A stretch of 51,932 nucleotides of DNA from a virus. Lineage: Duplodnaviria > Caudoviricetes. Positions 1,611 through 33,557 of the stretch are shown piece after piece. How positions within the stretch are numbered: the first letter of the stretch is position 1; the number at the start of each line of letters is the position of its first letter. The position numbers and the translations under genes are program-made. The stretch is taken from positions 1 through 51,932 of the IMG/VR virus record IMGVR_UViG_3300017913_002066; one strand, given 5' to 3'. Below the pieces are notes generated by a model. That model was not told the origin of the DNA and searched no databases. It saw only the letters and a program-made list of their open reading frames with translations.

Positions 1611-2771
1611 ATGGCTTTACAGATAAGACGTGGTACCGACGCAGATAGACAAGGCATTACACCTAAAGCAGGTGAACCGATCTTTACAACAGATACTAAG
1701 AAACTCTATGTAGGGGACGGCACAACAGCAGGCGGTGTTGCAGTTGATACAACAGCCGGACTTAATGATCTAATCGAAGATACAACACCTCAGTTAGGTG
1801 GAAACTTAGACCTCAATAATAAAAATATAACTGGTACTGGTAATATTAACATTACTGGCGAAGTTTCTGCAACATCAATTGATTTAAGAGGTTCTATATT
1901 TGCTGATGATTCGACTCTGCTTGTTGATGGTGTTAGTGGCAAAATTGTTGGTCCTGTAGAAGCAAATGTCACAGGTGATGTGACTGGTAACGTAACAGGT
2001 AACTTAACTGGTAATGCAACTGGTAACCATAGCGGTACATTTAGCGGAGTAATGAACGGTTCTGTATTTGGTGAAGATTCAACTGTTCTAGTAGATGGTA
2101 TTAACAATATTATTACAGCACCAGTTTCAACTACTGGTAGAGGTTTGTTTGGCGATATTGCAATTAACTCAACTGGTGCATCAATCTCTCATACTAATGA
2201 AGCCGCTAATAACATGGTTATTACAATGGCTAACGAGCTTGGTACAATTATCCTTAACAGAAAAACACAGTTAGGTAGTACTCAGAATGACATAGATGGT
2301 GAGCTTGTTATCCGTTCTAACACTGCTGAACATAATAACATATCTGCTTTAGGTTCATACGATGGCGCAGATCAACATTTGATTACTATTGGTAGATCAC
2401 GTGGAACAAAAGCATCACCGACAACAGTACAAAATGGCGATGGACTAGGTACTTTCCTTATTACAGGATATAATGGTGTTGGCTATAGAGTAGCTGGCGG
2501 TATTAGAGCTGTAGCAAACGATACGCCTGCTTCATTGTATATTCCGTCAGATGTTGAAATTTTTGTTGCTAATACAAGTGGCGGTGGCGACTCTGCACTA
2601 ACTGTTAAATATGGCACTAAAACTACTGAATTCAAGGGTGCGGCAAAATTACAAAGTTATGCTTCATCTGAAAGAGACGGTATTAGTGCAGAAAACGGTA
2701 TGATGATTTACAACAGTGACACCGATAAAGTTCAAGCATATGCTGGTGGCGCTTGGGTAGATCTGCACTAA
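1611..2771 (+). CDS. tail fibre / virion appendage protein with Mtd_N-like N-terminal domain
   Basis: The N-terminus MALQIRRGT...GEPIFTTDTKKLYVGDG matches the major-tropism-determinant N-terminal motif. It also has DTTPQLGGNLDLN, (V/L)TG(N/D) repeats, G/T/N-rich composition and a C-terminal GMMIYNSDTDK...W fibre motif. Confidence 0.8.
   Translation: MALQIRRGTDADRQGITPKAGEPIFTTDTKKLYVGDGTTAGGVAVDTTAGLNDLIEDTTPQLGGNLDLNNKNITGTGNINITGEVSATSIDLRGSIFADDSTLLVDGVSGKIVGPVEANVTGDVTGNVTGNLTGNATGNHSGTFSGVMNGSVFGEDSTVLVDGINNIITAPVSTTGRGLFGDIAINSTGASISHTNEAANNMVITMANELGTIILNRKTQLGSTQNDIDGELVIRSNTAEHNNISALGSYDGADQHLITIGRSRGTKASPTTVQNGDGLGTFLITGYNGVGYRVAGGIRAVANDTPASLYIPSDVEIFVANTSGGGDSALTVKYGTKTTEFKGAAKLQSYASSERDGISAENGMMIYNSDTDKVQAYAGGAWVDLH
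1881..2125 (+). repeat. internal peptide repeats in the tail fibre
   Basis: GSIFADDSTLLVDGVSGKIVGPV and GSVFGEDSTVLVDGINNIITAPV flank a VTGDVTGNVTGNLTGNATG tetrapeptide array. Confidence 0.7.
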
Positions 2772-2774
2772 TGT

Positions 2775-3374
2775 ATGCCATTAATAGATCTCAATACTAG
2801 GCAAATATTTTTTATACACATACCTAAAACTAGTGGATCTTCTTTATACTACAATCTAAAAAAACTAGAAAAAGACTGCGTGTCTGTCCGAGGACACGTA
2901 GATGGCATTCCTCTTACTCATTTACATGTAGAAATGGCGGAAAAGCACTGGCCGGACTACTACTCATATCAAAAATTTACAATAGTAAGAGAACCTAAAC
3001 AACGCCTACTATCAGGTTACTTGTATCATAAAAAACATACAGAAACCCTAGAAGATTTCGATCAATGGTTTAGTAAGTTGTGTGTAATGCTAGATAATAA
3101 TAGAAGTTGGATGCGTAATCATTTTAGACCACAGGTAGATTTCATACCTAAAGATACAAAAATATTTGATATAGAAGAACAAGACACTATCTATACATGG
3201 CTTAGCGATTACTTAAATATAGAAATTCCTCACGGTATAGTAAGGAATAAACAGCCCACCGACATAGACAACACAAGCATAGATATATTCGATTACATGA
3301 GCGATAACAATATAGATAAATTTAATTCTTTGTATTCTAAAGATATAGATATGCATAAGGACTTGACAACATAG
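2775..3374 (+). CDS. sulfotransferase (Sulfotransfer_2 / carbohydrate sulfotransferase-like)
   Basis: 5'-PSB motif FFIHIPKTSGSS, 3'-PB motif FTIVREPKQRLLSGYLY, and HFRPQ. Confidence 0.85.
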   Translation: MPLIDLNTRQIFFIHIPKTSGSSLYYNLKKLEKDCVSVRGHVDGIPLTHLHVEMAEKHWPDYYSYQKFTIVREPKQRLLSGYLYHKKHTETLEDFDQWFSKLCVMLDNNRSWMRNHFRPQVDFIPKDTKIFDIEEQDTIYTWLSDYLNIEIPHGIVRNKQPTDIDNTSIDIFDYMSDNNIDKFNSLYSKDIDMHKDLTT

Positions 3375-3391
3375 GCATTTTGTTGTATAGT
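3363..3391 (+). promoter_or_regulatory. sigma70-type (early) promoter
   Basis: TTGACA (3363-3368), 17 nt spacer, TATAGT (3386-3391). The panD ATG (3398) follows 6 nt later, at the expected +1. Confidence 0.8.
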
Positions 3392-3397
3392 AGTACT

Positions 3398-3754
3398 ATG
3401 AAAGAATATATACAAGCTAAACTTCACGACATTACAGTAACAGCAAAAAGCATAGACTATCATGGCAGTGTAACTATCTGTTCAAACTTACTGAGAGAAT
3501 CAGGTATTGAACCCTACCAAAAAGTTGATGTTGTAAATCTTAATACAGGTGATAGATGGACAACCTATGCTGTGCCAGGACCTGCAAAATCATTTGAATT
3601 AAACGGTGGTGGTGCAAGACTAGGTGAAATTGGAGATAAGTGTGTTGTTATAGCATACGAAATGAAAGACCAATTTACTGGTGCAAAAGTAGTTTTCGTC
3701 AATAAGTACAATACAAAACTAGAAAGTATTAAATATGCACCAAATACTATATGA
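3398..3754 (+). CDS. panD: L-aspartate 1-decarboxylase (pyruvoyl-dependent, makes beta-alanine)
   Basis: AKLH (Lys9/His11 equivalents), YHG|S autocleavage site (Gly24-Ser25), GDRWTTY (Arg54/Thr57/Tyr58), LNGGGARL and GDxxxVIAY are all collinear with PanD. Start reassigned to ATG 3398. Confidence 0.92.
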   Translation: MKEYIQAKLHDITVTAKSIDYHGSVTICSNLLRESGIEPYQKVDVVNLNTGDRWTTYAVPGPAKSFELNGGGARLGEIGDKCVVIAYEMKDQFTGAKVVFVNKYNTKLESIKYAPNTI

Positions 3755-4301
3755 ACTAAATGACTTAGATACATCTTCATTTGAGGATATTTCAAAATTT
3801 GAATTTGGAAGTTACGGTTTGCCTAAGATGAAGATCTACAATAAGGCAGTATATACAAGTCAATATCCCGATCTGTTGCTTATATACAAAAAATTTAAAA
3901 ATGCAAGACAGCTATTTGATTGGGCAGAAGTTATGTATGTTCCGCCGCATAATTGTGTAATGCCACATATAGATGCAGACAGATATTGTGCTATTAACAT
4001 ACCTGTATCAGGAGATTTTGAAAATTCATATCTTGCTTTTTTTAACAAAGGGCAACAGGAATTTCCAAACATTTATGAAGAAAATGGTAAAATGATACAA
4101 AAGAGTGGTGGTGGTTATCCTGATGCTACTATTGACTACAAAGTGTCATATACTTACCCTACACTTATAAATGTATCAAAAATACACAATGTAATAAACG
4201 AAACAGAACAAAATAGGATTGTTTTAAGTTTAACGTTTAAGCAAGAACACAGATATGAAGATATCTTAGATCTATATAATAACGGAGAGTTACTTTGGTA
4301 A
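3735..4301 (+). CDS. Fe(II)/2OG-type oxygenase (DSBH, Asp/Asn beta-hydroxylase-like)
   Basis: PHID...AINIPV...INVSKIHNV...NRIVLSL gives the HxD...H...R pattern. Confidence 0.7.
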   Translation: MHQILYELNDLDTSSFEDISKFEFGSYGLPKMKIYNKAVYTSQYPDLLLIYKKFKNARQLFDWAEVMYVPPHNCVMPHIDADRYCAINIPVSGDFENSYLAFFNKGQQEFPNIYEENGKMIQKSGGGYPDATIDYKVSYTYPTLINVSKIHNVINETEQNRIVLSLTFKQEHRYEDILDLYNNGELLW

Positions 4302-4897
4302 CAGTGCGTAAATTAGAAGATAAAGATAAAGAAGAATTTATCAATTTTATTAACGCAGAAGAACAAAAAAATAGTGAGCGCAGGAAACCTAGACCTTGGC
4401 TAATAGATAATATTAATTTCAACGCAAGTTATAGACAATGCTTTGGTGCATTTGATAATGGAGAACTTGTAGCTACTTGTGCAATTAATCATTGGCCAGT
4501 TTGGCCTTGGAGTACGCTAGACACTTTAGTTGTAAAATATGGCTTGCCAACAGATGTAGCTAGACAGTGCTTTAATAGACTTACAGTAACAATTAAAGAT
4601 TTTAATGAAGAACATAACATTTTTGCAATATGGGCTGTGCGAGATTTACGACAAGCTAAGGCACTTATGCGTTCAAAAGATGCATTTTACAAAGATGGAA
4701 TGTTAAGCGAAGGTTATATGTACCTAGAACTAGGTATTATTCCTGCAAACAAAAAATCAAGCTATTTTGCATTTAATAAAATGTTAGAAGATAGAGTGTA
4801 TCCTGTTGATATGCATATAGGTGTATATATAAAAGATCCAGAATACTATCCTAAAGACTGGTATAATAAAATAACATATGCACAAGATACTGATTAA
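4295..4897 (+). CDS. GNAT-fold acyltransferase-like protein
   Basis: VRKLEDKDKEEF N-terminus and CFGAFDNGELVATC beta-hairpin are typical of GNATs, but the acetyl-CoA motif A is not canonical. TTG start with upstream GGAG. Confidence 0.5.
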   Translation: MVTVRKLEDKDKEEFINFINAEEQKNSERRKPRPWLIDNINFNASYRQCFGAFDNGELVATCAINHWPVWPWSTLDTLVVKYGLPTDVARQCFNRLTVTIKDFNEEHNIFAIWAVRDLRQAKALMRSKDAFYKDGMLSEGYMYLELGIIPANKKSSYFAFNKMLEDRVYPVDMHIGVYIKDPEYYPKDWYNKITYAQDTD

Positions 4898-5996
4898 TCA
4901 TCAAAGCTACAATAGCCAGCATCTGTTTGACGAACTCAAAGACTATAGTTTGTTTAGTATTAGTAGCGATCAAAATATCTTACAACCTAGGACAGACTAT
5001 TCAAATAATTTTGTTACGCATAAGATTATAAAAGGCATTCCTCATAGACTAGATTATGGCACAGAAATAAAAAAGTACTACAGTGAAAATAACATTGACA
5101 TATTCTTTCCTTTGTACAATGATATGCTTTTGCCTTATATTTGGGAAATATGCAATTTATCGCGAGTGCAAACAGATATTCTTTATAGCAAGTACAATTA
5201 TATTGCACATTTTAGAGAAGCAGGCATTCCTGTTCCTAGTACAACACGATACTGGCCATCAATAAAATACCCTTGTATAGCAAAACCAGACAACGGTACA
5301 GGTGGCTTAGGGGTAAAATATATCAAAGATTACGATGATCTAAAAAACTTTATTACAGACGATATACAACATATAGATCTAGGACAAGGCTACACCTTTC
5401 AAGAATACATAGAAGGCACATTGGTAAGTGTAGCAGGGCGGGTTGTGAATGGAGAAACTATAGTAGATTGCATTTATGACATAGAGTCTAGTGAATTGCC
5501 TTACAGAGCAGAGATAGGTTTTACATACCCTAGTCGTGTAGATATACAAGATAAAATTAAAGATTATTGCAAACAAGCAGTTGATAGCTTAGAACTAAAA
5601 AACAATATTTGGATGGCTGATTTTATTGTATCAGATGATGCATACATTATAGACTTTAGCCCACGTTTAAGCGTAAGCGTATCTAAGATTGTAAATAGTT
5701 TAAGTGATGTACCATATAGCCATTTTGTAGTAGATGCATTGCAAGGTATCTACAAACCATTAGAATTACAGAATGACAGTATTGTGTATAGACACTTTCC
5801 GATCAACAAAGGTTTATACAATCACAAACAACCTTTGCTTCCTGATAGTTGCTTAGAATTTGTTGCACCAGAAGAAAAAGTGTATATGGACAGATTTGAT
5901 CTACAAGTAGGAATAAAAGGATATGCTGTGTGCAAAGGCAAAAGTATTGAACAATGCAATACAGATTGGAATAGTATAAAGGAACAATTAGTATGA
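4878..5996 (+). CDS. ATP-grasp ligase (amino-acid/peptide ligase-like)
   Basis: YPCIAKPDNGTGGLGV, FQEYIEG, ADF...IIDFSPRLS (a variant of ExNxR). Confidence 0.85.
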   Translation: MHKILINHQSYNSQHLFDELKDYSLFSISSDQNILQPRTDYSNNFVTHKIIKGIPHRLDYGTEIKKYYSENNIDIFFPLYNDMLLPYIWEICNLSRVQTDILYSKYNYIAHFREAGIPVPSTTRYWPSIKYPCIAKPDNGTGGLGVKYIKDYDDLKNFITDDIQHIDLGQGYTFQEYIEGTLVSVAGRVVNGETIVDCIYDIESSELPYRAEIGFTYPSRVDIQDKIKDYCKQAVDSLELKNNIWMADFIVSDDAYIIDFSPRLSVSVSKIVNSLSDVPYSHFVVDALQGIYKPLELQNDSIVYRHFPINKGLYNHKQPLLPDSCLEFVAPEEKVYMDRFDLQVGIKGYAVCKGKSIEQCNTDWNSIKEQLV

Positions 5997-6745
5997 AAAA
6001 GTTTGTAGTTACAGGAACTCCAAGGAGTGGCACAACCTTTTTTTGTAGGACATTAGAAAAAGAATCAAACATACTTTTACCTAGATTTCATAACTATGAA
6101 CCTTTTATTCCGCAAAATAGGATTGTTTCAAGCAATAGGATAGGTATTAGTGCTTTTGACGAAGCTGAAAGTATCAAAAGAATTGTAAAATTTGGCATAG
6201 ATAATAATTTTGATGCTGTTGGATTCAAAACATTTTTTAGTTTTCATTATAATTTTGAAAAGATGTTAGAACAAAATGAACTAGACCATTTCTTAATTTT
6301 GCGTAGAAATGTATGGAAAATTTTTGCCAGCTATTGGATGGCATTTTCAAAAAGTGAATTTGGTAAAAGTAGTTTGATACATGAAGCTATACAAATAGAC
6401 ACCGAATCAGTGATGTCTAAGATAATAAAACAAACAATAGATGCAGTCCTAAAAACATACATGTATCGCAGTCAAATTGAACAGCATCCTAATCATATTG
6501 TTACATTATATTTCGAGGACTTCACTGCCAAAAGCGGCCACATAGGCGATAGCGAACTTACAGAATACTTTGGTAAGCGTATTATATTCCAATCAGGGTA
6601 TGATGATCCTCAACACAAACCTAGTGATTACATAAAAAATATACAAGAAATCAAAGAAAAATTTGTAGATCCTTTATTAAATAGTAAGGCTGTAGCAGGC
6701 TTACCACAAGATGTTTTAGAAAGTCTCCACAATGATTGCATATAG
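5993..6745 (+). CDS. sulfotransferase (Stf0 / Sulfotransfer_3-like)
   Basis: FVVTGTPRSGTTFF PAPS loop, EPF, GFK, LRRNVWKIFASYW (R...S 3'-PB) and LYFEDF. Confidence 0.8.
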   Translation: MKKFVVTGTPRSGTTFFCRTLEKESNILLPRFHNYEPFIPQNRIVSSNRIGISAFDEAESIKRIVKFGIDNNFDAVGFKTFFSFHYNFEKMLEQNELDHFLILRRNVWKIFASYWMAFSKSEFGKSSLIHEAIQIDTESVMSKIIKQTIDAVLKTYMYRSQIEQHPNHIVTLYFEDFTAKSGHIGDSELTEYFGKRIIFQSGYDDPQHKPSDYIKNIQEIKEKFVDPLLNSKAVAGLPQDVLESLHNDCI

Positions 6746-7100
6746 ATTAACAATAATAGATAATAAGCAGAACGAAACTATTGATGATTTTTACTATGCT
6801 GGAATGACACTTCCAGAAGGTAAGACAGGAACAGGACTACGCCAACTCAGTAGAGAATTTATTGCACAACGTAAAATGTTAGATAGATTGTTTATGCTTA
6901 GTGAATCAGGCAGAGTGTTAGAAGTTACCAGCATATTCAAAGATAGACAAAGTTATAGCGAATTTGTAGAACATGATATACACAGATACAGTTTAGAGTT
7001 TTTTGAATCTAAAAATTGGCAAGTGATAAGAAGTGTATTCAATCTTAATGATTACAAAAATTTAAAGGTTGAAATGTTTAGAGACGGTGCATTTAGATAG
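6732..7100 (+). CDS. small hypothetical protein, possible ferredoxin-like/ABM-Dabb alpha+beta fold
   Basis: 122-aa ORF coupled to the previous gene. LSESGRVLEVTSIFKDRQSYSEFVEHDIH resembles the strand-helix of ABM-like proteins (weak). Confidence 0.55.
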   Translation: MIAYRLTIIDNKQNETIDDFYYAGMTLPEGKTGTGLRQLSREFIAQRKMLDRLFMLSESGRVLEVTSIFKDRQSYSEFVEHDIHRYSLEFFESKNWQVIRSVFNLNDYKNLKVEMFRDGAFR

Positions 7101-7812
7101 GTACAAAGTCTCTATTAACTATAAACTCAGGCCTTGATGGCTTTGTTACTTTATTATCTAAACTATTATAGCATACAAAAAATATACATCTATCTTTGTC
7201 GCTAGTATTTGCACTGCTTTTGTGCCATAAATTACTGTGCATACAGAACACATCACCTGCTTTGCCAAGCACTGTATGACGCTTATATTGCGTTTTAGAC
7301 ACCATCTCTTGTGTAATCATACCGTTAGTTTCTTTGTTATCGTGCTTTATTTGATAGGTTTTGCTAGGTTGTTTTGTTATGTATTCTACGTGACTTCCAC
7401 TTAATACTTCTAAAGGTCCGTTATCTATTTCCATGTCATCAACAAGAAAAAGACAACTTATAGCATCAGGCTTGAGCATTCCGTCATCTGCACACCAAAA
7501 AGTGTAATCACTGTGCCAAGCGTATTCACCGCCTACTTTTGCTTTCTTGTAGTTGAAATGGTTTTGGTGCATATAGACATTGTTGCCTAATATGCTTTTT
7601 ACAGTGTCAAGCACTTTAGGATTTTCTATGTATTCGGACAGTGTGTCGTCAAGCCAAAACGGACTAAACACGCTACGCACATCACCTGTTTGCTCATATA
7701 GGAAATAATCTTTGTTTTTGTGTTGTAATATTTGCTGAGATTTTTCTTTAAGTGCAACTGGATCAAAAACATTGTGCAGGTGTATCCACCCTTGACTTTC
7801 GTAATTTTGCAT
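7093..7812 (-). CDS. PhyH-family Fe(II)/2OG dioxygenase, ectoine/proline hydroxylase-like
   Basis: YMHQNHFNYK...YAWHSDYTFWCADDGML resembles the EctD signature FxWHSDFETWHxEDG(M/L)P. Also NGPLEVLSGSH, GKAGDV...HSNLWHKSSAN...R. Start reassigned to ATG 7812 (MQNYESQG). Confidence 0.88.
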   Translation of the reverse strand: MQNYESQGWIHLHNVFDPVALKEKSQQILQHKNKDYFLYEQTGDVRSVFSPFWLDDTLSEYIENPKVLDTVKSILGNNVYMHQNHFNYKKAKVGGEYAWHSDYTFWCADDGMLKPDAISCLFLVDDMEIDNGPLEVLSGSHVEYITKQPSKTYQIKHDNKETNGMITQEMVSKTQYKRHTVLGKAGDVFCMHSNLWHKSSANTSDKDRCIFFVCYNSLDNKVTKPSRPEFIVNRDFVPI

Positions 7813-7817
7813 GAAAA

Positions 7818-7825
7818 TATTTATA
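7818..7825 (-). promoter_or_regulatory. putative late promoter TATAAATA, leaderless
   Basis: Minus strand reads TATAAATA-TTTTC-ATG (ATG at 7812); exact T4 late consensus. Confidence 0.75.
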
Positions 7826-7829
7826 AGGA

Positions 7830-7835
7830 TAAATA
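7830..7835 (+). promoter_or_regulatory. putative late promoter core (GATAAATA)
   Basis: TAAATA-ATTGT-GGAGG(SD)-CCCAAT-ATG (7852); back-to-back with the minus-strand promoter. Confidence 0.7.
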
Positions 7836-7851
7836 ATTGTGGAGGCCCAAT

Positions 7852-8232
7852 ATGAAGAAAGTAAGTATTACAATCAATCCAGGACTTGGAACATTTGACA
7901 CAGACGTTGCTCTGCTCGACGAAATGTATAACAGAGCTGCTAACACAGATACAGCCGCTTTGGATACAGCAATCCAGACAGCAACACAAAACGGCGACAT
8001 TTGGATGCGTACATCGGATCTAACATCTACTAACGATGGCGTAATTTTTACATTTATACTAGACAGTGCAGACGCTTTGGCTTCCTTTAACACAAACATC
8101 AAGCCAAAACTTGAAGCAGGTTTGAATATTATGAATGCTACATATGGTTGGACAGAAGAAGATATGACATTTGATCAGTTCAGCACCTATGCTGCTGCGA
8201 ACAACGAAACGAACTTTACAGGCGCTTCATAA
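7852..8232 (+). CDS. small acidic A/T/D/N-rich protein, possible virion protein
   Basis: Perfect SD GGAGG, late promoter motif, 126 aa, no Cys or His; composition unlike the neighbouring enzymes. Confidence 0.7.
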   Translation: MKKVSITINPGLGTFDTDVALLDEMYNRAANTDTAALDTAIQTATQNGDIWMRTSDLTSTNDGVIFTFILDSADALASFNTNIKPKLEAGLNIMNATYGWTEEDMTFDQFSTYAAANNETNFTGAS

Positions 8233-9049
8233 GTTCTTCTACAGTTAGTTCATAAGTACCATTAAACACACTGAGCTCTTGCATTATGTCAAGAGCTTTT
8301 TCATTTAAAGCATCTGTAACACTTTCCCAACCTGTGTATTTTTCCCTATGATTTACATTATAGATACGATGCTTACTAGTACGAGTGCTTAGTTTTCCTG
8401 GCATTTGATTATTAATTAGTTTCTGCACTATAGGATCATGCGTAAATGCTTTTACCATTTCGCTTGTATATCTAAGAAAATCAGGTGTGCCGTCTATGTC
8501 ATTCAGTCTATACCAATTGTTGTAAGAATTTACACGCTCTGTTTCTTGCCAACGCCATTCGCCATAGTAGTTTTTAAAGTAGGGTTCGCCGTTTGCCATT
8601 ATCACTGTATCATCAAATAATGTCAGCCCTTTCATTACAGGAATCATTTGATGTGCATAACATTTTGCTTCTCTTGCGATATGTTCGTATTCTCCGCTAT
8701 CTATGAGCTGTCCAACATCAACAGTCTTAATAATAGGATCTATCTTGTTTAGGACGCAATACTGCAAAGCATATTTTATGTCATGTTTGTTGAGATGATC
8801 AGCATATTCTATGATACCAATATTAAAATCTACACCAGCTTCTTGGAAAGTTCGGATCATAAATTGACTATCAATACCTCCACTAAATAGAAGTGTAATG
8901 GGTCCTTTTGCTTGTTCTTGTATAATTTGGGCTGCACGAATAGATTCGTCTTTCCAAGTTCCAAAACTTTTGCATGTGGGCTTTAACTTTACGTTCCAGT
9001 CAGCACCGTGGCCTTCGAATGTAATATAATTGAGATGTGATAAATGCAT
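8216..9049 (-). CDS. PP-loop N-type ATP pyrophosphatase (asparagine-synthetase C-domain-like)
   Basis: ITLLFSGGIDSQ PP-loop; VIMANGEP; no N-terminal glutaminase domain. Start reassigned to ATG 9049. Confidence 0.7.
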   Translation of the reverse strand: MHLSHLNYITFEGHGADWNVKLKPTCKSFGTWKDESIRAAQIIQEQAKGPITLLFSGGIDSQFMIRTFQEAGVDFNIGIIEYADHLNKHDIKYALQYCVLNKIDPIIKTVDVGQLIDSGEYEHIAREAKCYAHQMIPVMKGLTLFDDTVIMANGEPYFKNYYGEWRWQETERVNSYNNWYRLNDIDGTPDFLRYTSEMVKAFTHDPIVQKLINNQMPGKLSTRTSKHRIYNVNHREKYTGWESVTDALNEKALDIMQELSVFNGTYELTVEELMKRL

Positions 9050-9715
9050 AACTTTGAACCTATAGATTTTGATTTTGATCAACAAGTTCTTTACAACGAC
9101 TTATTAGACTTTGGTATTTTTAACCGAAGCAAACTTGCTACAGTTATTTACACTGAAGGCCGTAGCAAGTATGACAAAGACGGCGTGTTTGATGATTATG
9201 AAGATGTTGTGCATTATAACGAAGATGGCGAGCTACAAGAGAAAGACTATAATACCTTTGTCACATATAACTTTACACACATACCAGGTATAGAAGAAAC
9301 ATACAACAGCAGTTTTGTAGATACACCAGAAGGCAGACGTCCAGTGTGGCATGTGTATGATCAAGCCTGGCAGTGGAAAGAAAATACTCCTGATAGCATA
9401 ATACAAACTGTAGATAGATTAGGCTTGTCATATGTAAGTTGTGTCAGACTTGTAGGACAAAATCCTCCTAGCAAAGGTATAGTGCATGTAGATAGTGCAT
9501 ACAGAGACAATCTAAAATATTTTAGAAACGGTGGAACAAGCATTACACTTAATGTATCTGATGGCGGAGGACATTTGGAATACATAGAAGGCAAAGAAGT
9601 GCATACAGTAGATGAGTCTAAACATAAAAGTTGGTTTTTCAACGATGCACTACAGCATAGAACAACGGAAATATTTTCACCTAGAATACAGATAAGGGTA
9701 TTTGGACACAAATGA
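9044..9715 (+). CDS. Fe(II)/2OG-type oxygenase (DSBH)
   Basis: VRLV...GIVHVD...ITLNV...FFNDALQH...RIQIRVFG. Confidence 0.7.
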   Translation: MHNFEPIDFDFDQQVLYNDLLDFGIFNRSKLATVIYTEGRSKYDKDGVFDDYEDVVHYNEDGELQEKDYNTFVTYNFTHIPGIEETYNSSFVDTPEGRRPVWHVYDQAWQWKENTPDSIIQTVDRLGLSYVSCVRLVGQNPPSKGIVHVDSAYRDNLKYFRNGGTSITLNVSDGGGHLEYIEGKEVHTVDESKHKSWFFNDALQHRTTEIFSPRIQIRVFGHK

Positions 9716-10428
9716 CAGATTGGCGTGACCTTGTTTTTTCACCTTTAGATTTGCCAGATCCACCTAGTGTAGATATGGATGATTTCCTAGCCTGGCATAC
9801 AAAACAAAAACAGTTTATGTTAGAGCATAATCCTAATATGGTGAATAGTAATGCAATATACGGTGGATACTCTTGGCATGTAAGTTGGGCTATATGGTGG
9901 AATACATATAAAAATGCCGACCCTTGGATCAGTGACTTTGATAAAACTTTTCCGCAACTTGTAGAATACATTAACCTATTTCCTTTCAAAACAGTTAAAA
10001 GCATTAGCTTCCTTAATCAAAAAGGAGGTAAAAAAGTAGAACCACATAGTGATCCTGACAGCATGTGGGGCATGAGATTCTATCTAAAAAATAAGATAGA
10101 CGATGCACTATATTTTTCAAGGACTAAAGAGCCTCTCAATCACAGGATTGCAACTATGGAAGATGATGAAGGTAATCCTTTAACTGAACAGAAGAATCAT
10201 TTAGATTTTTGTAGAGATGAAAAAATATATGCAAAGTTTCCAAAAAAAGAATGTGCATGGATGCTTAACAGTCATAGAGCATGGCACGGTGTAGATACAA
10301 ATAATCTAGCTACAGGCAGTAGGATAGTATGCACAATTATAGGTGATTATGATAAAGAAAAACTTTATCAATTGTTTGAAAACAGCACTATAAAATATCA
10401 AGACAAACAAATATGGTGGCACGAATGA
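9712..10428 (+). CDS. Fe(II)/2OG-type oxygenase (DSBH)
   Basis: VEPHSD...RFY...WMLNSHRAWHGV...RIV. Confidence 0.7.
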   Translation: MTDWRDLVFSPLDLPDPPSVDMDDFLAWHTKQKQFMLEHNPNMVNSNAIYGGYSWHVSWAIWWNTYKNADPWISDFDKTFPQLVEYINLFPFKTVKSISFLNQKGGKKVEPHSDPDSMWGMRFYLKNKIDDALYFSRTKEPLNHRIATMEDDEGNPLTEQKNHLDFCRDEKIYAKFPKKECAWMLNSHRAWHGVDTNNLATGSRIVCTIIGDYDKEKLYQLFENSTIKYQDKQIWWHE

Positions 10429-11042
10429 AAGTATTATATTCTCCTATAGATTTACCAGACTTTCAATTAGACATTGAAAAATTTTTAGAATGGCATACTA
10501 ATAAAAAGCGCAGAGCATTAGACAATATAGGGTATGATAAAAATGAATTTAGGTCACCTTGGTTGCTTAGTTTTGCTTATAAGGAAGAATTAGGATGGTG
10601 TGATGAATTCTTATCTATTGCTCCAGACTTTAAAGACATTATAGACCAAGCACCATTTAAAAAATTAACATACATAAACTTTCTAGAACAAAAGATTCCT
10701 TGCCAAGAACATCAAGACTGGACAAGTCGTGGTCCAGAAACAGGGATGCCTGACACATATAAGGCATTTATATTTTATGATCAACCTTTAATGTATATGA
10801 AAAAAGGACGTACAAAACAAGAGTTACAATCAGAAAAACATTACATACACCATCCATTAGATAAAACAAGATGGTTTGGGCTAAACAATTATGACGGATT
10901 CCATGCTGGAGAAATTCCTCCTGAAGGAGTACGTAAAATTATAATGACTATAAAAGGTAAAATTGATTTAGACAAACATAAAATAATTATTGACAGAAGT
11001 GTCAAAAAATATAAAGATTATTTGATTACATTAGATATATAA
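10425..11042 (+). CDS. Fe(II)/2OG-type oxygenase (DSBH), paralog of 9712-10428
   Basis: EHQD...WFGLNNYDGFHAG...RKII. N-terminal YSPIDLPD...FLEWHT matches FSPLDLPD...FLAWHT. ATG at 10425 in an ATGA overlap. Confidence 0.7.
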   Translation: MKVLYSPIDLPDFQLDIEKFLEWHTNKKRRALDNIGYDKNEFRSPWLLSFAYKEELGWCDEFLSIAPDFKDIIDQAPFKKLTYINFLEQKIPCQEHQDWTSRGPETGMPDTYKAFIFYDQPLMYMKKGRTKQELQSEKHYIHHPLDKTRWFGLNNYDGFHAGEIPPEGVRKIIMTIKGKIDLDKHKIIIDRSVKKYKDYLITLDI

Positions 11043-12457
11043 TCGTGTATCCTTTTTGCTTTTACTTTTTTCATCTGATCCCACGGCAATTTATGTGTAT
11101 ATCCGCCGTGGTTGGCATAATGTTCTGCTATATCTACACCCATTGAACTAGTGCTTCCACAATTCCATCCTGCAATTTTTTGATGAACTGTATCATCTAT
11201 ATTTAATTTTGTACCTAACCTGAATGCTTGATTACTGTTCATGTATTCATTTTTCCAAAGTAATCTAACTCTATTCCGCTTTTTTCCTACAATAGTGTAT
11301 CCGTATTTTTCAGGGTCCTTGTCAATGGGTGAAAGATAAATTTGATGTTCGTCATTATGGATTGCTAGAGGATGATAATTCCAATTATCAATAGCAGGAT
11401 CAGCAATAATCTTCTCTCTAGTTTCTAAAACCATATCTATAGTTTCATGCGGCAAACCTATAATTATGTTAATACTATTTTTAACTTGTCCGTTACTCTT
11501 ATTTTTAAGTTCAGTTATAGATTCTAATACCGTTTCAACATCATGACCTTTGTTAATTGCTTTTCTTGTTTGCCTATTGTATGATTCTATACCAATACTA
11601 GTTCCCCTAAGTCCTGCTTCTATAAGCAAGGGAATTTGATCAGGCCATCTTACTAAGAGTTCTGGCTTTATGTAAGTATCAAAGTTTATTTTAAATGGTA
11701 GTGATGTAGTTATATCATGCATAAGTTCTAGTTTATACATACTATCATTAAATGTATCATCTAAAAACAAATACTGTTGTGTTCCAAATTGTTCATAATT
11801 TCTTATGAACTCTTCTTTCATATCCTCTTTAGCTCTTATATAGTCAAATTTCTTTTTTCCGTTATGGGGGAAATTACAAAACGCACATTGAAAAATACAT
11901 CCTCTAGCAACTTCAAAAGGCAAAGCATCGCTTGCAGTTAAACCATCAGACTCTTTCCATCTTATTGGAATGTTAGAAAGATCTTTCTTATCATACATGA
12001 TATTACTAGGAATAGTAATGCCGCCGTTTTTTGATATAAAATGTTTTACTTCTGTGCCTTTATATAGATGATCGCTTAGTGCAACAACAGCGTCATCTGC
12101 ATATCCTGAAATCTCTATGTCAAAAAAACTAGGCGCAAAGTGTCCTGTCTTAGGGCCGCCGATTACAAATTTAGTATTATACCTTGCTTTAAGGTCTTCC
12201 CAAAATTCATAATCACCTTTTTGAAGTATCTCAGTACCGCCAAAAAATGTTGTACTAAATCCTACCCATAATGTTTCAGGTCCTACATACTTTTCAAATA
12301 TTTTTTCTATATGGTCTTGTGTTAGATGATACCAAAAATCTACAACTGTACAACTATAACCTGCTGTTTCTAGAGCTGTTCTGATCCTATATGCGCCAGC
12401 AGGCCTATGATATGAATCGTTATATTCGATTCCAGTAAAAATTAAAATTTGACTCAT
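11018..12457 (-). CDS. B12-binding-domain radical SAM protein (class B-like)
   Basis: N-terminal RPAGAYRI...L...GY...VVDF...VGFSTTF...VIGGP cobalamin domain; FEVARGCIFQCAFC (CxxxCxxC); DDTFN; GIES; IIGLPHET. Confidence 0.88.
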   Translation of the reverse strand: MSQILIFTGIEYNDSYHRPAGAYRIRTALETAGYSCTVVDFWYHLTQDHIEKIFEKYVGPETLWVGFSTTFFGGTEILQKGDYEFWEDLKARYNTKFVIGGPKTGHFAPSFFDIEISGYADDAVVALSDHLYKGTEVKHFISKNGGITIPSNIMYDKKDLSNIPIRWKESDGLTASDALPFEVARGCIFQCAFCNFPHNGKKKFDYIRAKEDMKEEFIRNYEQFGTQQYLFLDDTFNDSMYKLELMHDITTSLPFKINFDTYIKPELLVRWPDQIPLLIEAGLRGTSIGIESYNRQTRKAINKGHDVETVLESITELKNKSNGQVKNSINIIIGLPHETIDMVLETREKIIADPAIDNWNYHPLAIHNDEHQIYLSPIDKDPEKYGYTIVGKKRNRVRLLWKNEYMNSNQAFRLGTKLNIDDTVHQKIAGWNCGSTSSMGVDIAEHYANHGGYTHKLPWDQMKKVKAKRIHDYISNVIK

Positions 12458-13209
12458 TATGATTTGACTAGTTTAATTATCCATGCGCTAGGATCTAATT
12501 CCCACCACTTATGCTGAAAGTTCCATCTGCCTGGTTTAGCATGATGATTATTGTGCCACCCTTCGCCCCAAGTAACTAAAGCCAGCCACCAAGTGTTGCG
12601 ACTGTCTTCTTTAGTTTCATAATTTCTATAACCCCACATATGGTTAATGTAGTTGCTTAACACACTAATCCAAATTTGAATGCCCATAGGAATAATGCCT
12701 GCAAACACTAAAACATTTGCACCTCCTAGTGCATATAATAGCACAAGCCATGCAAGGAGTATAGCATAGTAATAATTATGCAGGACTAGATGAAACTTGT
12801 CTGTAATGAGTCTCCTTACAGACCATTTGTTCATTTCAAATTCGTATTTAGGAATAAGCACATTCCAAAGACCAAGATGAGGACTGTGAGGATCTCCATC
12901 CTTGTCTGCGTTTTTATGATGATCATTATGTATTGCTACCCATCCTATACTACTACCTGTACCTCCTATTGCTCCAAAAAAGCTAAACAAGTATTCCATC
13001 CACTTATATCTAAATTCGAAAGACCTATGAGTAAGATATCTGTGGAATGTAATAGTAATACCTAAGCATCCTGTAAGGAAATACACACCTATACTTAAAG
13101 CCCACCAAGATAAACTAGGTGCGTTGAATAACATATACACAATAAGAATTGTTGCTACTGCTTGTATGTAAGGAAAATATGTAGTATTTGCTCTAAAAAC
13201 GTCTTTCAT
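12457..13209 (-). CDS. membrane fatty-acid desaturase (delta-9 / OLE1-DesC-like)
   Basis: His boxes HRYLTH, HNDHH and HNNHH; GDPHSP; HMWGYRNY; GEGWHNNHH; WWELDP; transmembrane stretches. Start reassigned to ATG 13209. Confidence 0.92.
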   Translation of the reverse strand: MKDVFRANTTYFPYIQAVATILIVYMLFNAPSLSWWALSIGVYFLTGCLGITITFHRYLTHRSFEFRYKWMEYLFSFFGAIGGTGSSIGWVAIHNDHHKNADKDGDPHSPHLGLWNVLIPKYEFEMNKWSVRRLITDKFHLVLHNYYYAILLAWLVLLYALGGANVLVFAGIIPMGIQIWISVLSNYINHMWGYRNYETKEDSRNTWWLALVTWGEGWHNNHHAKPGRWNFQHKWWELDPSAWIIKLVKS

Positions 13210-13252
13210 GAAAATATTTATCTTAGTACATGCGCAGCTAAATATTTTCATG
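13207..13252. promoter_or_regulatory. divergent late-promoter cassette: perfect 14-bp inverted repeat (TAAATATTTTCATG on each strand)
   Basis: catgaaaatattta (13207-13220) and taaatattttcatg (13239-13252). Each arm is TAAATA-TTTTC-ATG and ends in the start codon of a divergent gene. Confidence 0.8.
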
Positions 13253-13924
13253 CTAGACAAAGTCCTACAAATACCACATCTTGATTTAGGTTTTCAATTT
13301 GACGTTGAAAGAATGCTTGCTGATGTAGAGCAAATTGACGAATACTATGCCTATCAGACTATCTATCATAGTGCGCAAGAAAAATATGCTAAAGTATGGA
13401 GTGGTGCAGGTCTAACTAGCATGGACGGAACTGTTGATCATGGTATGACTGAAGGAAGCAGTATAGGATTTGTAGTAGGTGAGAGCACTTTTAAAAGGAC
13501 ACCATTAGCAGACAAATGTCCATATTTGATGGAGGTATTAGAGACACTTAACTGTACAGAAGATAGAAGCAGAGTAATGCGTATTGCGCCTAAAGGAAGT
13601 TTAACATGGCACAGTCATGTAATACATAACAATCAGGACAAACAGAGACTAGTAGTACAAATACCAATAGTAGTTCCAAAGGGATTTAAGTATAGCGTTG
13701 TGCATATCAAAGATTATTCAAAAATTGCTAGAGGACATGATGCAAAAACATATGACATGACTTATACTCCTGGAAGAGCATATTTGTTTAATTGCTTTCA
13801 CCCTCATAATGTTTTTAATCCATCGGAAGAATATAGGATTACTCTTATGACCTATATGGATTATTATAGGAATAGAGATATAATAGAATCTGCACTAGAC
13901 AAATACGAAGGACCCTACTTATAA
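13250..13924 (+). CDS. aspartyl/asparaginyl beta-hydroxylase-like DSBH protein (HxH variant)
   Basis: CPYLMEVL...RSRVMRIAPKGSLTWHSH...QIPIV...GRAYLFN...HNVFN...RITL. Confidence 0.8.
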   Translation: MLDKVLQIPHLDLGFQFDVERMLADVEQIDEYYAYQTIYHSAQEKYAKVWSGAGLTSMDGTVDHGMTEGSSIGFVVGESTFKRTPLADKCPYLMEVLETLNCTEDRSRVMRIAPKGSLTWHSHVIHNNQDKQRLVVQIPIVVPKGFKYSVVHIKDYSKIARGHDAKTYDMTYTPGRAYLFNCFHPHNVFNPSEEYRITLMTYMDYYRNRDIIESALDKYEGPYL

Positions 13925-14482
13925 TTTAAGTTCAGCAACCGTTTGTTTAGTATATTGTATCACTTTAGGCTCATCGTACCAAGTTAGGTTTTGATATATT
14001 TGTCTAGGGCCGCCAAACGTACTTGCCTTCCCCTCACTTATCCTACGTAAGAAATTAACAAGACGATGATTGTACTCATTAAAAGTAAACCACACCTTGT
14101 CGTAGCCTAATTCTTTGTAATATTCTATATGTTCAGGAAAAATATAGCGAGCTTGACACCAATATCCGCCGCCTCTATAATCAGGATGGGTAAATGTCCT
14201 TACACCAATAATAGGAACACCTTCGTATATGTAGCTACCACTCATTGCAATAGGATTGCCTTTACTGTTAGATACAACTGAAAATAGATCATAACGCTTT
14301 GCTACACATAATGTATGCATTAGCGTGTGTTTTTTGTTTCGCCAGTCTATGATATCATAGTTTTCTGAAGCAGGTTCTTTTAAATCATATGCAATGCTAG
14401 AAAGTTTTTCTACTTTTTTAAGGATCTCTGTAGGTAAATGATGAAAATCAAAAGTATCTACTGTAAAATTATGTATATTCAT
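13919..14482 (-). CDS. GNAT N-acyltransferase
   Basis: IAMSGSY...GVRTFTHPDYRGGG (motif A)...GYDKVWFTFNEYN. Confidence 0.7.
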   Translation of the reverse strand: MNIHNFTVDTFDFHHLPTEILKKVEKLSSIAYDLKEPASENYDIIDWRNKKHTLMHTLCVAKRYDLFSVVSNSKGNPIAMSGSYIYEGVPIIGVRTFTHPDYRGGGYWCQARYIFPEHIEYYKELGYDKVWFTFNEYNHRLVNFLRRISEGKASTFGGPRQIYQNLTWYDEPKVIQYTKQTVAELKL

Positions 14483-14859
14483 ATTATTTTATACGCCCAG
14501 AATATGTTGTCTCTAGTGTTAGGTACCCATTTGTGCAGAACATTTGTTTGTAGTGTCATTGGCTTATCAATTAATATTTTTTGTGTTTCGTATTGTATAG
14601 TAGTGCTACCTTTTATAGGAACTATAAACAATCCCCATATTTTTGGCGCTTTGTGCCAATCTACTTCAAATACTAATCTACTTACTAGATGTTTATCATC
14701 TGGCAAATGAAGCCAGGCTCTATCTTCTATAAGTGTATTATTGTGTTCTGCTATTAACCATTTTTTAAACAGTGTATCTAAATCTTGTTTAGTTGGTGCG
14801 GCCGGGGGATTCGAACCACCGTAGGTGCTAATGCTACCATCTGAGTTACGATCAGACAC
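14479..14859 (-). CDS. small DSBH/cupin oxygenase-like protein with HxA motif; N-terminus encoded within the tRNA-like element
   Basis: WHKA...FIVPIKG...PMTLQTNVLHKW aligns with the HxD...NIPV.G...PTLINV..IH of neighbouring oxygenases. No in-frame ATG near the start; GTG 14859 has GGAG 9 nt upstream and overlaps the upstream TGA (GTGTCTGA). Confidence 0.6.
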   Translation of the reverse strand: MSDRNSDGSISTYGGSNPPAAPTKQDLDTLFKKWLIAEHNNTLIEDRAWLHLPDDKHLVSRLVFEVDWHKAPKIWGLFIVPIKGSTTIQYETQKILIDKPMTLQTNVLHKWVPNTRDNIFWAYKII

Positions 14860-14884
14860 GTTTGACCACTCCGTCACGAGCCGC
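14794..14884 (-). tRNA. atypical or degenerate tRNA-Tyr(GTA)-like element
   Basis: Minus strand GCGGCTCG-TG-ACGGAGTGGTCAAACGT-G-TCTGA-TCGTAAC-TCAGA-TGGTAGCATTAGCACCTAC-GGTGGTTCGAATCCCC-CGGCCGC-A-CCA. It has a D-loop GG, a perfect 5-bp anticodon stem, a long variable arm, a TTCGAAT T-loop, G1-C72, A73 and encoded CCA. Anomalies: C at position 33 and bulges in the acceptor and T stems. Confidence 0.75.
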
Positions 14885-15439
14885 AATTCTATTTAACAGA
14901 TGTTCGGCAATGAGTTTATTACCTTTGGCTGTAACACCATTTGGTCCTTCTGCAAAATCACATTGATTAAATCTAGCAATAGTCATTGGAATTTTATCTG
15001 CATTAGATACTTTTAACCAATCAGGAAATGGATGGCTTGGATCAATACAATTTATTACAAATGTATTTGTGTCTTTACAAAATTTGTCTATTTGTAATGC
15101 AGCACCATATAATCTCGCTCGCTCAAGTTCTATATCTCTCATTTGTTCAACATACATAGTGTGTAAAGGGATTTCACTATCTTGTAATCCTCTAGTAGAA
15201 CTTGCATCGAAATCATAATCTCTGTTGGGTGCATATATTAGCCTACTCTGACTATGAAAAACAATAGCAATGTCAGGCTTTGTTTTTTTAAGGCTTAGCA
15301 ATGCACGCTCTTCAGAGCCCATGCGCACTCCAGTAGATACTATTTTTGCATTTATTTCGTTTGCAACTATATCTATAAAACTATCTTTACCTCTATAAGC
15401 ACACGTACTATGTCCATAAAATCCTAAACGAAGTTGCAT
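14852..15439 (-). CDS. SGNH/GDSL-hydrolase-like protein (non-canonical catalytic motifs)
   Basis: LGFYGHSTCA (GDS block I variant), GVRMGSE, PDIAIVFHS, and C-terminal PNGVTAKGNKLIAEHL (block V without the His). Confidence 0.55.
   Translation of the reverse strand: MQLRLGFYGHSTCAYRGKDSFIDIVANEINAKIVSTGVRMGSEERALLSLKKTKPDIAIVFHSQSRLIYAPNRDYDFDASSTRGLQDSEIPLHTMYVEQMRDIELERARLYGAALQIDKFCKDTNTFVINCIDPSHPFPDWLKVSNADKIPMTIARFNQCDFAEGPNGVTAKGNKLIAEHLLNRIAARDGVVKRV
14890..14895 (-). promoter_or_regulatory. putative late promoter core positioned at the tRNA 5' end
   Basis: TAAATA-GAATT-G(14884): the same 5-nt spacing as the leaderless ATGs; lies inside the upstream CDS. Confidence 0.55.
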
Positions 15440-15942
15440 AAAAGATCCTCGTAGTCTATGTCAAACCCCCATTGTATGAACTTTCTTTCTAGATTATTAT
15501 TTTGCTCTACATCATGTATTGTTTGGGTATTTAAGATCCATACTTCGTTATCTTTTGCAACAAATGAATCAACCAAATATAAACTTTCACGATCAAATGC
15601 GTTTTCTATTGTAAAACCCATATATTCATCTATAGTTTTTGCATCTTCATCAGCATATATTCTTGTTGTTGCATCACCGGCTGTCATGTACCAGTTTATA
15701 GCACTCTTGCATTCTGTGTCTCTATGAGCATGTACTGTTGCAGGACCTTTCATATAAACAAGTGTAACATACAAACACTTATCTTGCAAGACATCAGGAA
15801 GGCAATTTAGATAAAATCTTTTAGATTTTTCATCTATTTCAAAATATTGTAGTCCATAATTCCCAAGAGGAGATTTGTTGCCTTCTTTGAGAGATAATTT
15901 ATTCCAAGGACGTATCCATGTTTTGTCTATCCGACTGAACAC
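15424..15942 (-). CDS. Fe(II)/2OG-type oxygenase (DSBH)
   Basis: VHAHRD...SAINWY...FVAKDNEVWILNTQTIHDV...RKFIQW; GTG start. Confidence 0.72.
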   Translation of the reverse strand: MFSRIDKTWIRPWNKLSLKEGNKSPLGNYGLQYFEIDEKSKRFYLNCLPDVLQDKCLYVTLVYMKGPATVHAHRDTECKSAINWYMTAGDATTRIYADEDAKTIDEYMGFTIENAFDRESLYLVDSFVAKDNEVWILNTQTIHDVEQNNNLERKFIQWGFDIDYEDLLCNFV

Positions 15943-16409
15943 TATATTTTCCTCGTTAGTTCTAGTCTTTCAAAAGTCCAAGGCTGTCTGCATTGTAAGA
16001 TAAATGCAATTCTGTAATCATCTGTACTATTAGTATAACTGTGCATAAGATCACATCTAAATGCTACTGGTCCATTTATATCAAAACTTTTATCTTCTAT
16101 AGTTATAGGACTTGTATAATTTGCCAAAGGAAATAAAAAATTTACAGTACGCACATGTCCAACTCCGCTACTATCAGTATGAGGAGCAACTATTGTATTA
16201 GGCTTTGTTTTTATAAAAGTACAAGCAAAAAAAGGCACACCTGGAAATTGTTTTGTGATATCTTGTACAACAGGATGTTCTAAATCAAACATACTTATTT
16301 CCTGTGGTATTGCCCGACCTAGCTTTTCATAACCATTTGTAAATTGTAAAGTTTCTGCAATGTCAAGCAGTGCGTTAATATCATATGTCGCATCTAATTC
16401 TTTAAACAT
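15942..16409 (-). CDS. Fe(II)/2OG-type oxygenase (DSBH)
   Basis: VAPHTD...VNFLFPL...PVAFRCDLMHSYTN...RIAF. Confidence 0.7.
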   Translation of the reverse strand: MFKELDATYDINALLDIAETLQFTNGYEKLGRAIPQEISMFDLEHPVVQDITKQFPGVPFFACTFIKTKPNTIVAPHTDSSGVGHVRTVNFLFPLANYTSPITIEDKSFDINGPVAFRCDLMHSYTNSTDDYRIAFILQCRQPWTFERLELTRKI

Positions 16410-17819: not shown

Positions 17820-17848
17820 ATTGATATTTATTTGTAAATATTACGATG
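17817..17848. promoter_or_regulatory. divergent late-promoter pair, both leaderless
   Basis: Minus: TAAATA(17830-17825)-TCAAT-ATG(17819). Plus: TAAATA(17835-17840)-TTACG-ATG(17846). No SD on either side. Confidence 0.75.
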
Positions 17849-33551: not shown

Positions 33552-33557
33552 TATTTA
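33552..33557 (-). promoter_or_regulatory. putative late promoter core (GATAAATA)
   Basis: Overlaps the TAA of the giant gene; followed by SD AGGA and ATG 33535. Confidence 0.6.

Follow-up and report, generated by a model that had tools for sequence, protein, structure and literature searches.

What does a virus do with β-alanine? The question is raised by the IMG/VR record IMGVR_UViG_3300017913_002066 (Duplodnaviria; Caudoviricetes), analyzed here over its whole length of 51,932 bases and hereafter called the window, in which a panD gene for aspartate 1-decarboxylase leads an operon that also encodes an ATP-grasp ligase. While a phage panD is normally filed as an auxiliary gene for vitamin B5, the phage panD genes described below were consistently tied to amide- or acyl-forming enzymes. 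The baseplate wedge protein encoded in the window showed 34–37% identity to those of the jumbo myophages SCTP-2, Atu_ph07, RaK2, and 121Q, and by its sequence the window, about 14% of a genome, is classed as a fragment of a RaK2/Atu_ph07-like jumbo phage.

The original prediction for this DNA had described a near-consensus sigma70 promoter in front of six overlapping genes, an intact PanD with a YHG|S cleavage site, and a DFSPR sequence replacing the usual ExNxR of the ATP-grasp enzyme, all of which were confirmed. The promoter (3363–3391, plus strand) matches the consensus at 11 of 12 positions and precedes six plus-strand open reading frames (ORFs), namely, panD (3398–3754), a predicted oxygenase gene (3735–4301), a GNAT-fold gene (4295–4897), the ligase gene (4878–5996), a predicted sulfotransferase gene (5993–6745), and an ORF for a protein of 122 aa (6732–7100), with consecutive overlaps of 20, 7, 20, 4, and 14 nt. 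Beyond these, the analysis took in a fibre gene (1611–2771), a second sulfotransferase gene (2775–3374), and a convergent EctD-like gene (7093–7812). As argued below, the product of PanD is probably used by the ligase in some form; the specific reading that we favor, with slightly less than even confidence, is that the ligase joins β-alanine by an amide bond into a small dipeptide-like molecule. No publication on a phage panD–ATP-grasp operon was found in a literature search at the level of listings and abstracts, and supplementary annotation tables could list such genes.

Conservation of the operon

The ligase as a single-sequence query against viral contigs gave no matches and an alignment query was needed; alignment-based scans recovered 10 viral and 33 metagenome ligase loci. 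These 43 loci, together with L020, L026, and the window, constituted a conservation set of 46 rows in 28 lineages (95% ligase identity), and the 23 lineages with the fibre gene, and hence the upstream DNA, in view were evaluable for panD. The ligase had no match in 50,697 GenBank phage records. The operon-bearing jumbo phages are widespread and aquatic (marine and brackish), and one relative is a 335-kb jumbo phage contig (L085–L102, G007:C57) found inside a bacterial bin. In four seawater metatranscriptome runs from one study, contigs covered pieces of each gene, mostly at 90–99% identity; their strand and level were not readable and they may derive from DNA, and they were set aside as evidence.

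The co-localization of panD with the ATP-grasp gene, which the original prediction made a point to be checked, was found in 22 of the 23 evaluable lineages. The GNAT-fold gene was present in 23 of 28 lineages, with four absences at contig ends, and the EctD-like gene in 25 of 28, with two of the three absences at contig ends. The true exception was L018/L079, in which the ligase is 30% identical and neither panD nor the GNAT-fold gene occurs in 94.8 kb. In relatives, the gap between panD and the GNAT-fold gene holds TauD-like genes (10/28), a desaturase gene, a radical SAM gene (11/28), the oxygenase gene, or nothing, and the simplest operons consist of panD, the GNAT-fold gene, and the ligase gene alone; despite these many insertions, panD and the ligase gene are kept in one operon. 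Three loci have a gene of the tryptophan-halogenase family inserted into the cluster, as at L060 12362–13927.

The conserved core comprises panD, the GNAT-fold gene, the ATP-grasp gene of the L-amino-acid-ligase fold, and the convergent EctD-like hydroxylase gene, located next to the tail-fibre gene; the oxygenase of the window, its sulfotransferase, and its small barrel protein are exchangeable extras that may have no part in the product. The conservation of the EctD-like gene with the core exceeds that of three of the six operon genes. The fixed upstream neighbour is an Mtd_N-type tail-fibre-like gene (1611–2771, plus strand; PF18454, E 1e-12), and the operon, lying 3′ of it, opens a block of about 20 kb that reaches to the tail genes and contains genes of the oxygenase, radical SAM, desaturase, and GNAT types.

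Pairwise divergences were compared among 17 loci (136 non-independent pairs). The highest correlation was that between the ligase and the EctD-like protein (ρ 0.74), and the divergence of the GNAT-fold protein was correlated with those of orf131 (0.57), the EctD-like protein (0.52), the ligase (0.46), PanD (0.24), and the fibre protein (0.09). Such tracking is only a hint of a functional link, as genetic linkage yields the same pattern. Co-evolution of the GNAT-fold protein with the fibre, also considered, was not seen at this last value.

The phage PanD clade and its coupling enzymes

PanD (3398–3754, plus strand), assigned as a pyruvoyl-dependent aspartate 1-decarboxylase of a phage-specific clade, matched PF02261 with an E value of 1e-28 (99.8 bits against a cut-off of 25). 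Residues K8, Y21, G23|S24, R53, T56, Y57, and N69, which correspond to K9, Y22, G24, S25, R54, T57, Y58, and N72 in E. coli numbering, were invariant in 45/45 rows of the phage clade. As far as described in the part of the literature drawn on (PMC3975893), T57 is required for cleavage, Y58 is a proposed proton donor, R54 binds the β-carboxylate, and K9 is also given a role. The phage PanD thus keeps all cleavage and catalytic residues of cellular PanD (PF02261, TIGR00223); it differs in forming a separate clade, in scoring under the equivalog cut-off, and in having no panB or panC adjoining in the loci read. In a quick tree of 63 rows, with cellular sampling mostly from Bacteroidota, the phage PanDs were split from 18 cellular PanDs with a Shimodaira–Hasegawa-like approximate likelihood ratio test (SH-aLRT) support of 100, and 25 ligase-linked PanDs were split from the other PanDs with a support of 99. 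A subclade of the ligase-linked PanDs (L011, L047, L050, L052, L055–L057, L060, L062, L075, and L081) has Gln for His11 and Asp or Glu before the cleavage Gly (KIQ...YDGS).

A coupling gene was present at all 36 viral panD loci, redundant copies included: 11 carry the present ATP-grasp gene, 21 a CoA-transferase-III-like gene (20 of them also ParB-like and ATP-binding cassette (ABC)-GNAT genes in the style of phage Jace gp85–88), and 4 an amidoligase gene. Of five panD loci from species genomes, which also belong to the two main types, two lie on phage-like contigs in bins and three resemble prophages. Among the GenBank phage records mentioned above, 15 matched panD; only Jace (two records) falls in this clade by identity, and the remainder resemble host DNA. 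The Jace-type and PanD–amidoligase cassettes thus share with the present operon the same PanD clade beside an acyl- or amide-coupling enzyme, and differ from it in coupling chemistry and genomic setting. This recurrent pairing suggests that phages use β-alanine as a building block, and pathway-dedicated PanDs are known from cells, namely, KirD for kirromycin and CrpG for cryptophycin.

Both sister arrangements have features of their own. The Jace-type cassette (L010 4347–7112, phage Jace gp85–88; L024–L046; L082–L084) encodes a ParB-like protein, an ABC-ATPase/GNAT fusion, PanD, and a short CoA-transferase-III-like protein; its 21 viral loci lie beside terminase genes, and it is carried by a cultured phage. 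In another phage group (L006–L009, about 8000–11000), the gene for a PanD of this clade precedes two or three genes of the amidoligase type (PF12224) and one resembling methyltransferase genes, beside a gene for a UvdE-like endonuclease.

The phage clade is further marked (E. coli numbering) by N, D, or G for R12, by W55 where cellular enzymes have F or L, and by NGG[GS]A where they have NGAAA. Such clade-specific changes near the site (R12, W55, NGGGA), together with the many genes for oxygenases, TauD-like proteins, and radical SAM enzymes within the operon and near it, would fit a PanD acting on an aspartate analogue (hydroxy- or methyl-aspartate, cysteate) furnished by the oxygenases or radical SAM enzymes of the cluster, so that the ligated amine would not be β-alanine. 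We consider this improbable, since R54 and K9 are invariant, the same PanD type occurs in the Jace-type and amidoligase-type settings without such enzymes, and the simplest operons hold only panD, the GNAT-fold gene, and the ligase gene.

β-Alanine supply and the host pathway to CoA

Neither panB nor panC was found in the window, as originally pointed out, although the window represents about 14% of the genome. Likewise, none was detected in the 335-kb relative, in the bin that holds this contig (incomplete), or above the cut-off in five partial relatives (incomplete genomes); weak Pantoate_ligase matches in two relatives, covering 18–59 of 268 positions and under the cut-off, were not counted as panC. 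The original prediction had reasoned from this absence that β-alanine feeds the ATP-grasp enzyme and not CoA synthesis. The first part of this proposal is favored by the linkage in 22/23 lineages and by the model of the ligase, which is of the L-amino-acid-ligase type, whereas the argument from panB and panC is weak, as the likely hosts often have both and lack panD. The 335-kb relative encodes a 5-aminolevulinate synthase (557 bits against a cut-off of 338.6), which suggests, but does not prove, alphaproteobacterial hosts; according to the portion of PMC11480375 considered, this enzyme in a phage is compatible with other hosts too. Within the sections drawn on here, PMC7142369 gives 37 aspartate decarboxylases (ADCs) among 204 alphaproteobacterial genomes, and its Table A2 has three Pelagibacter rows with panB and panC and without panD.

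These same host data speak for panD as an auxiliary metabolic gene for host pantothenate and CoA, the ligase and GNAT-fold genes being co-regulated early genes that act on other substrates, and the 335-kb relative carries many other metabolic genes. This explanation nevertheless appears unlikely to us. A host without panD would equally explain why a phage ligase that needs β-alanine brings its own PanD; a coupling enzyme stands at 36/36 viral panD loci in three unrelated settings; the phage clade is distant from housekeeping PanD; and panD and the ligase gene stay in one operon through insertions, with panD and the GNAT-fold gene both absent in L018.

The ATP-grasp ligase

The ligase (4878–5996, plus strand) matched PF02655 (E 4e-13), and its structural model, with a predicted local distance difference test score (pLDDT) of 87, matched 3VOT first (TM-score 0.81, E 3e-21), followed by YwfE/BacD (0.79–0.80) and RizA (0.72), with PurK/PurT-type ATP-grasps lower among the matches. 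In a hidden Markov model (HMM) alignment to 3VOT, E212, D248, D259, and R263 of the phage enzyme correspond to Glu, Glu, Glu, and Arg. Accordingly, E212 and R263 are kept, and the two metal-site Glu residues are replaced by Asp248 and Asp259, both invariant in 29/29. The DFSPR sequence comprises residues 259–263 (D248...D259-F-S-P-R263); since 3VOT itself reads EVGAR there, the lack of Asn in the ExNxR position is normal for L-amino-acid ligases. The phage ligase thus resembles these enzymes (BL00235/3VOT, BacD/YwfE, and RizA) in its three-domain fold (TM-score 0.72–0.81), ATP-binding lysines, putative acid-acid-Arg active-site set, and missing ExNxR Asn. It differs from them in its sequence (14–16% identical), in having Asp for both metal-site Glu residues, and in that the phage encodes a PanD and a partner of the GNAT fold along with it.

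A tight family is made up by the close homologues of the ligase, of which 62 share 35–44% and one shares 91% identity with it. Of the nearest representatives whose motif could be aligned, 63/64 have the Asp and 64/64 the Arg, and 60 of 84 more distant rows have Glu. On these alignments DFSPR is a subfamily signature, and its reading as the mark of a dead enzyme was rejected in view of the Asp in 63/64 of the nearest clusters. These residue positions have substrate-binding roles in BacD, and one may speculate that the Asp pair makes room for the extra CH2 of a β-amino acid. The Asp-Asp-Arg subfamily also includes a 683-aa fusion of a ligase with a GNAT-like part, a tail of only weak GNAT likeness (hhalign E 1.5e-4, probability 51), and a protein of 861 aa with two ligases in tandem (P0125/P0076).

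The GNAT-fold protein and the EctD-like hydroxylase

The protein encoded between the oxygenase and the ligase (4295–4897, plus strand) is a fast-evolving GNAT-fold protein (model pLDDT 82) with 22% mean identity to its relatives. Its fold matched 3d8p with a Z score of 14.6 and a root-mean-square deviation of 2.8 over 154 aligned residues, and the Foldseek E value was 1e-8. The usual acetyl-CoA motif, Q/R-x-x-G-x-G/A, was found in 0/23 rows. A GNAT-fold protein associated with PanD recalls PanZ/PanM, as presented in PMC4537548. PanM-dependent PanDs are, however, reported only from Gammaproteobacteria, and the phage protein is encoded next to the ligase: insertions leave its gene beside that of the ligase, not beside panD. 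With this gene order and the low correlation with PanD divergence (ρ 0.24), the identification of the GNAT-fold protein as PanZ was judged unlikely.

The EctD-like 2-oxoglutarate (2OG)-Fe(II) hydroxylase gene (7093–7812, minus strand) is convergent to the operon and co-conserved with the core. Its product matched PF05721 (E 4e-28), remained below the cut-off of TIGR02408 (124 bits against 336.5), and has WHSDYTFW in place of the EctD signature WHSDFETW. It keeps the HxD...H iron site, and its solved relatives include ectoine and leucine hydroxylases.

Promoter classes and predicted timing

The promoter TTGACA-17-TATAGT (3363–3391) was the top-scoring site between positions 2000 and 10000, in which the sigma70 scan gave 32 sites against 35.9 expected. 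The ATG of panD (3398) lies 6 nt 3′ of the −10 box, so that the panD transcript is predicted to be leaderless. This leaderless pattern matched once in the window, in front of panD only, against 0.43 in shuffles; as a single match is within chance, the evidence is carried by its conservation. Among 26 distinct panD upstream sequences, 25 had the same leaderless arrangement, and all 26 had a promoter within 80 nt, the odd one lying about 30 nt further upstream. From its sequence, the operon is accordingly predicted to be an early one, transcribed by the RNA polymerase of the host.

In contrast to this class, the motif ATAAATA, which we take to be a late promoter from its likeness to the T4 consensus, precedes the fibre-region and baseplate-region genes, the EctD-like gene, and orf131 (18/18 orf131 homologues). 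Copies standing back to back at 7818–7835 are predicted to serve the EctD-like gene and orf131 as late promoters. Divergent gene pairs with very short spacers occur in the window at 7812–7852, 13209–13250, and 17819–17846, with ATAAATATT motifs placed back to back some 12 nt ahead of the ATG; these ATAAATATT spacers are predicted to give leaderless late transcripts.

In the 335-kb relative, the leaderless sigma70 pattern had 8 matches. Besides the one at panD, three precede genes for a DNA polymerase fragment, a primase, and a DnaB helicase, one precedes a heptose kinase/adenylyltransferase gene, one an unassigned gene for 392 aa, and two, possibly noise, precede short ORFs. A promoter class common to polymerase, primase, and helicase genes would suit an operon that builds a β-alanyl nucleotide or DNA mark against restriction, as has been suggested for the sister cassette of ParB, ABC-GNAT, PanD, and CoA-transferase. 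The sister PanD clade indeed adjoins ParB-like, ABC-GNAT, and terminase genes (e.g., phage Jace gp85–88), and the lower fold matches of the ligase include PurK/PurT-type enzymes. We nonetheless regard a DNA mark as very improbable, given that the conserved block has no DNA-binding, ParB, or nucleotide-kinase gene, the locus lies in the fibre region, and a role in DNA is likewise putative for the sister cassette.

The heptose kinase/adenylyltransferase in the same promoter class points to another destination, in which β-alanine would be ligated onto a macromolecule, such as the fibre protein, the host surface, or a glycan made by the phage, there on a uronic acid or an amino sugar. Decarboxylation combined with ATP-grasp amidation is known for the Campylobacter capsule uronate. 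The operon has a fixed place directly behind the Mtd_N fibre gene, the nucleotide-sugar genes of the 335-kb relative lie no more than about 20 kb away from it (those for UDP-glucose dehydrogenase, DegT, and a hexapeptide protein), and the GNAT-fold protein evolves very fast, as a target-recognition part might. Against this, the promoter is of the sigma70 type, unlike the ATAAATA of structural genes, the divergence of the GNAT-fold protein does not follow that of the fibre, and the top fold matches of the ligase are free-dipeptide ligases. On balance, a macromolecular target seems rather unlikely.

Proposed pathway to a β-alanyl amide

We therefore return to the small dipeptide-like amide as the proposed product. 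The genes concerned overlap and stand behind one conserved leaderless sigma70 promoter. PanD, from its invariant catalytic residues, would cleave itself at G23|S24 and convert aspartate to β-alanine. The ligase, as its modeled fold and the kept Glu212, Asp248, Asp259, and Arg263 imply, would form an acyl-phosphate and then the amide; L-amino-acid ligases are described in the part of PMC9486568 considered as joining a carboxylate to an amine via a phosphorylated intermediate. In this step, β-alanine is more likely the acyl donor, and its partner would be small and amino-acid-like. The EctD-like enzyme may, by its co-conservation, hydroxylate the partner or the product, and the GNAT-fold protein putatively caps the product or presents the acceptor. 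A small molecule is favored by the L-amino-acid-ligase fold, by the EctD-like partner with its ectoine and leucine hydroxylase relatives, and by a loose analogy to the N-acetylglutaminylglutamine amide (NAGGN) system.

In the NAGGN system (asnO-ngg), as far as presented in the part of PMC8070244 drawn on, a non-ribosomal dipeptide arises via an acetyltransferase, a peptide-bond-forming activity, and an asparagine-synthetase-like enzyme. The phage GNAT-fold, ligase, and PP-loop genes are neighbours, which makes for an analogy only. The phage system differs in that the GNAT-fold protein and the ligase are separate genes, the former lacks the CoA motif, PanD is added, and the PP-loop protein, of about 280 aa, has no Asn-synthase Pfam match. 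The parts are from known families, and cells offer precedents for the logic, in which an ATP-grasp amide ligase is supplied by a decarboxylase of its own. Carnosine synthase, an animal enzyme of about twice the length, is an ATP-grasp that uses β-alanine as acyl donor; it was absent among the listed fold and sequence matches of the ligase, with which no direct comparison was made.

Several points weigh against this pathway. The acceptor is a candidate and the activities are predicted; the 14–16% identity of the ligase to its solved matches settles neither substrate nor polarity; and PanD, at 73 bits against the TIGR00223 equivalog cut-off of 106, falls below it, with clade-specific changes at R12, F/L55, and the NGAAA loop through which its substrate could differ. 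The EctD-like gene lies on the opposite strand under a different promoter class, and linkage may suffice to explain why it co-varies with the ligase; the pairs are also non-independent. Moreover, for hosts lacking panD this gene by itself would improve the CoA supply, and the fibre gene beside the operon and the nucleotide-sugar genes within about 20 kb of it in the 335-kb relative fit a glycan target as well.

In its broadest form, held only tentatively, the proposal is that aquatic jumbo phages have their own early, non-ribosomal pathway to a carnosine-like β-alanyl amide, with a distinct Asp-Asp-Arg ATP-grasp subfamily and swappable tailoring genes, and that phages recruited one PanD clade three times as a β-alanyl donor, for ATP-grasp, CoA-transferase/GNAT, and amidoligase chemistry. 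If true, abundant marine and brackish jumbo phages would make a small molecule or surface mark of their own, and the ligases would constitute a new ATP-grasp subfamily, perhaps of β-amino-acid ligases of biocatalytic use. The three-gene set of panD, the GNAT-fold gene, and the ligase gene is small enough for direct testing in E. coli.

Accessory genes and the wider cluster

The original prediction had all six genes acting on one product, which would be hydroxylated, acylated, and sulfated; this did not hold. The predicted 2OG-Fe(II) oxygenase (3735–4301, plus strand), which gave no significant Pfam match, was assigned from its conserved residue set (H78-x-D80, H151, and R161). It was found in 17/28 lineages with varying position and strand, often on the opposite strand next to the EctD-like gene, and acylation has the motif count of 0/23 in the GNAT-fold protein against it. 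The predicted sulfotransferase (5993–6745, plus strand) has a TPRSGTT 5′-phosphosulfate-binding (5′-PSB) loop and matched PF13469 at 22.6 bits (E 1.5e-4), the cut-off being 27. It travels with the next ORF (6732–7100, plus strand), which encodes a 122-aa dimeric alpha+beta barrel of a Dabb/ABM-like fold (TM-score 0.6–0.7 to Atlas structure rows). The two form a movable pair: they occur in 2/28 lineages, and in L020 they lie 5′ of the promoter in reversed order. The 335-kb relative has homologues of both (23% and 28% identity) next to the terminase gene, with about 137 kb between them and panD. These data leave a sulfation step unsupported. The second sulfotransferase gene (2775–3374, plus strand; Sulfotransfer_2, PF03567, E 4.5e-8), also accessory, lies 5′ of the promoter and was found in 4/28 lineages.

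Beyond the EctD-like gene, orf131 (7852–8232, plus strand) encodes a conserved small dimeric-barrel-like protein (23/28 lineages), followed by a gene for a predicted adenylating enzyme with a PP-loop (SGGID; 8216–9049, minus strand; 23/28 lineages). The latter weakly matched PF01171 and had no meaningful match among PDB sequences; its counterpart in a relative matched QueC (E 3e-6). These genes belong to a larger conserved block (7093–9715 and 9712–17819), which holds the EctD-like gene, orf131, the PP-loop gene, a gene for a cupin-like protein of 223 aa, two genes resembling oxygenase genes, and one gene each for a B12 radical SAM enzyme, a desaturase, and a second GNAT; its order is the same in most relatives, and it exceeds the panD–ligase operon in size. 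Farther downstream, a 5,029-aa ORF with CBM5/12-like and FG-GAP repeats (33555–48644) lies between the baseplate wedge and fibre genes. The 335-kb relative encodes a major capsid protein, terminase, and sheath, and also 5-aminolevulinate synthase, heme oxygenase, bilin reductase, phosphoenolpyruvate carboxykinase, and a set of phosphate ABC transporter proteins, and it has genes resembling folE, queD, and queE.

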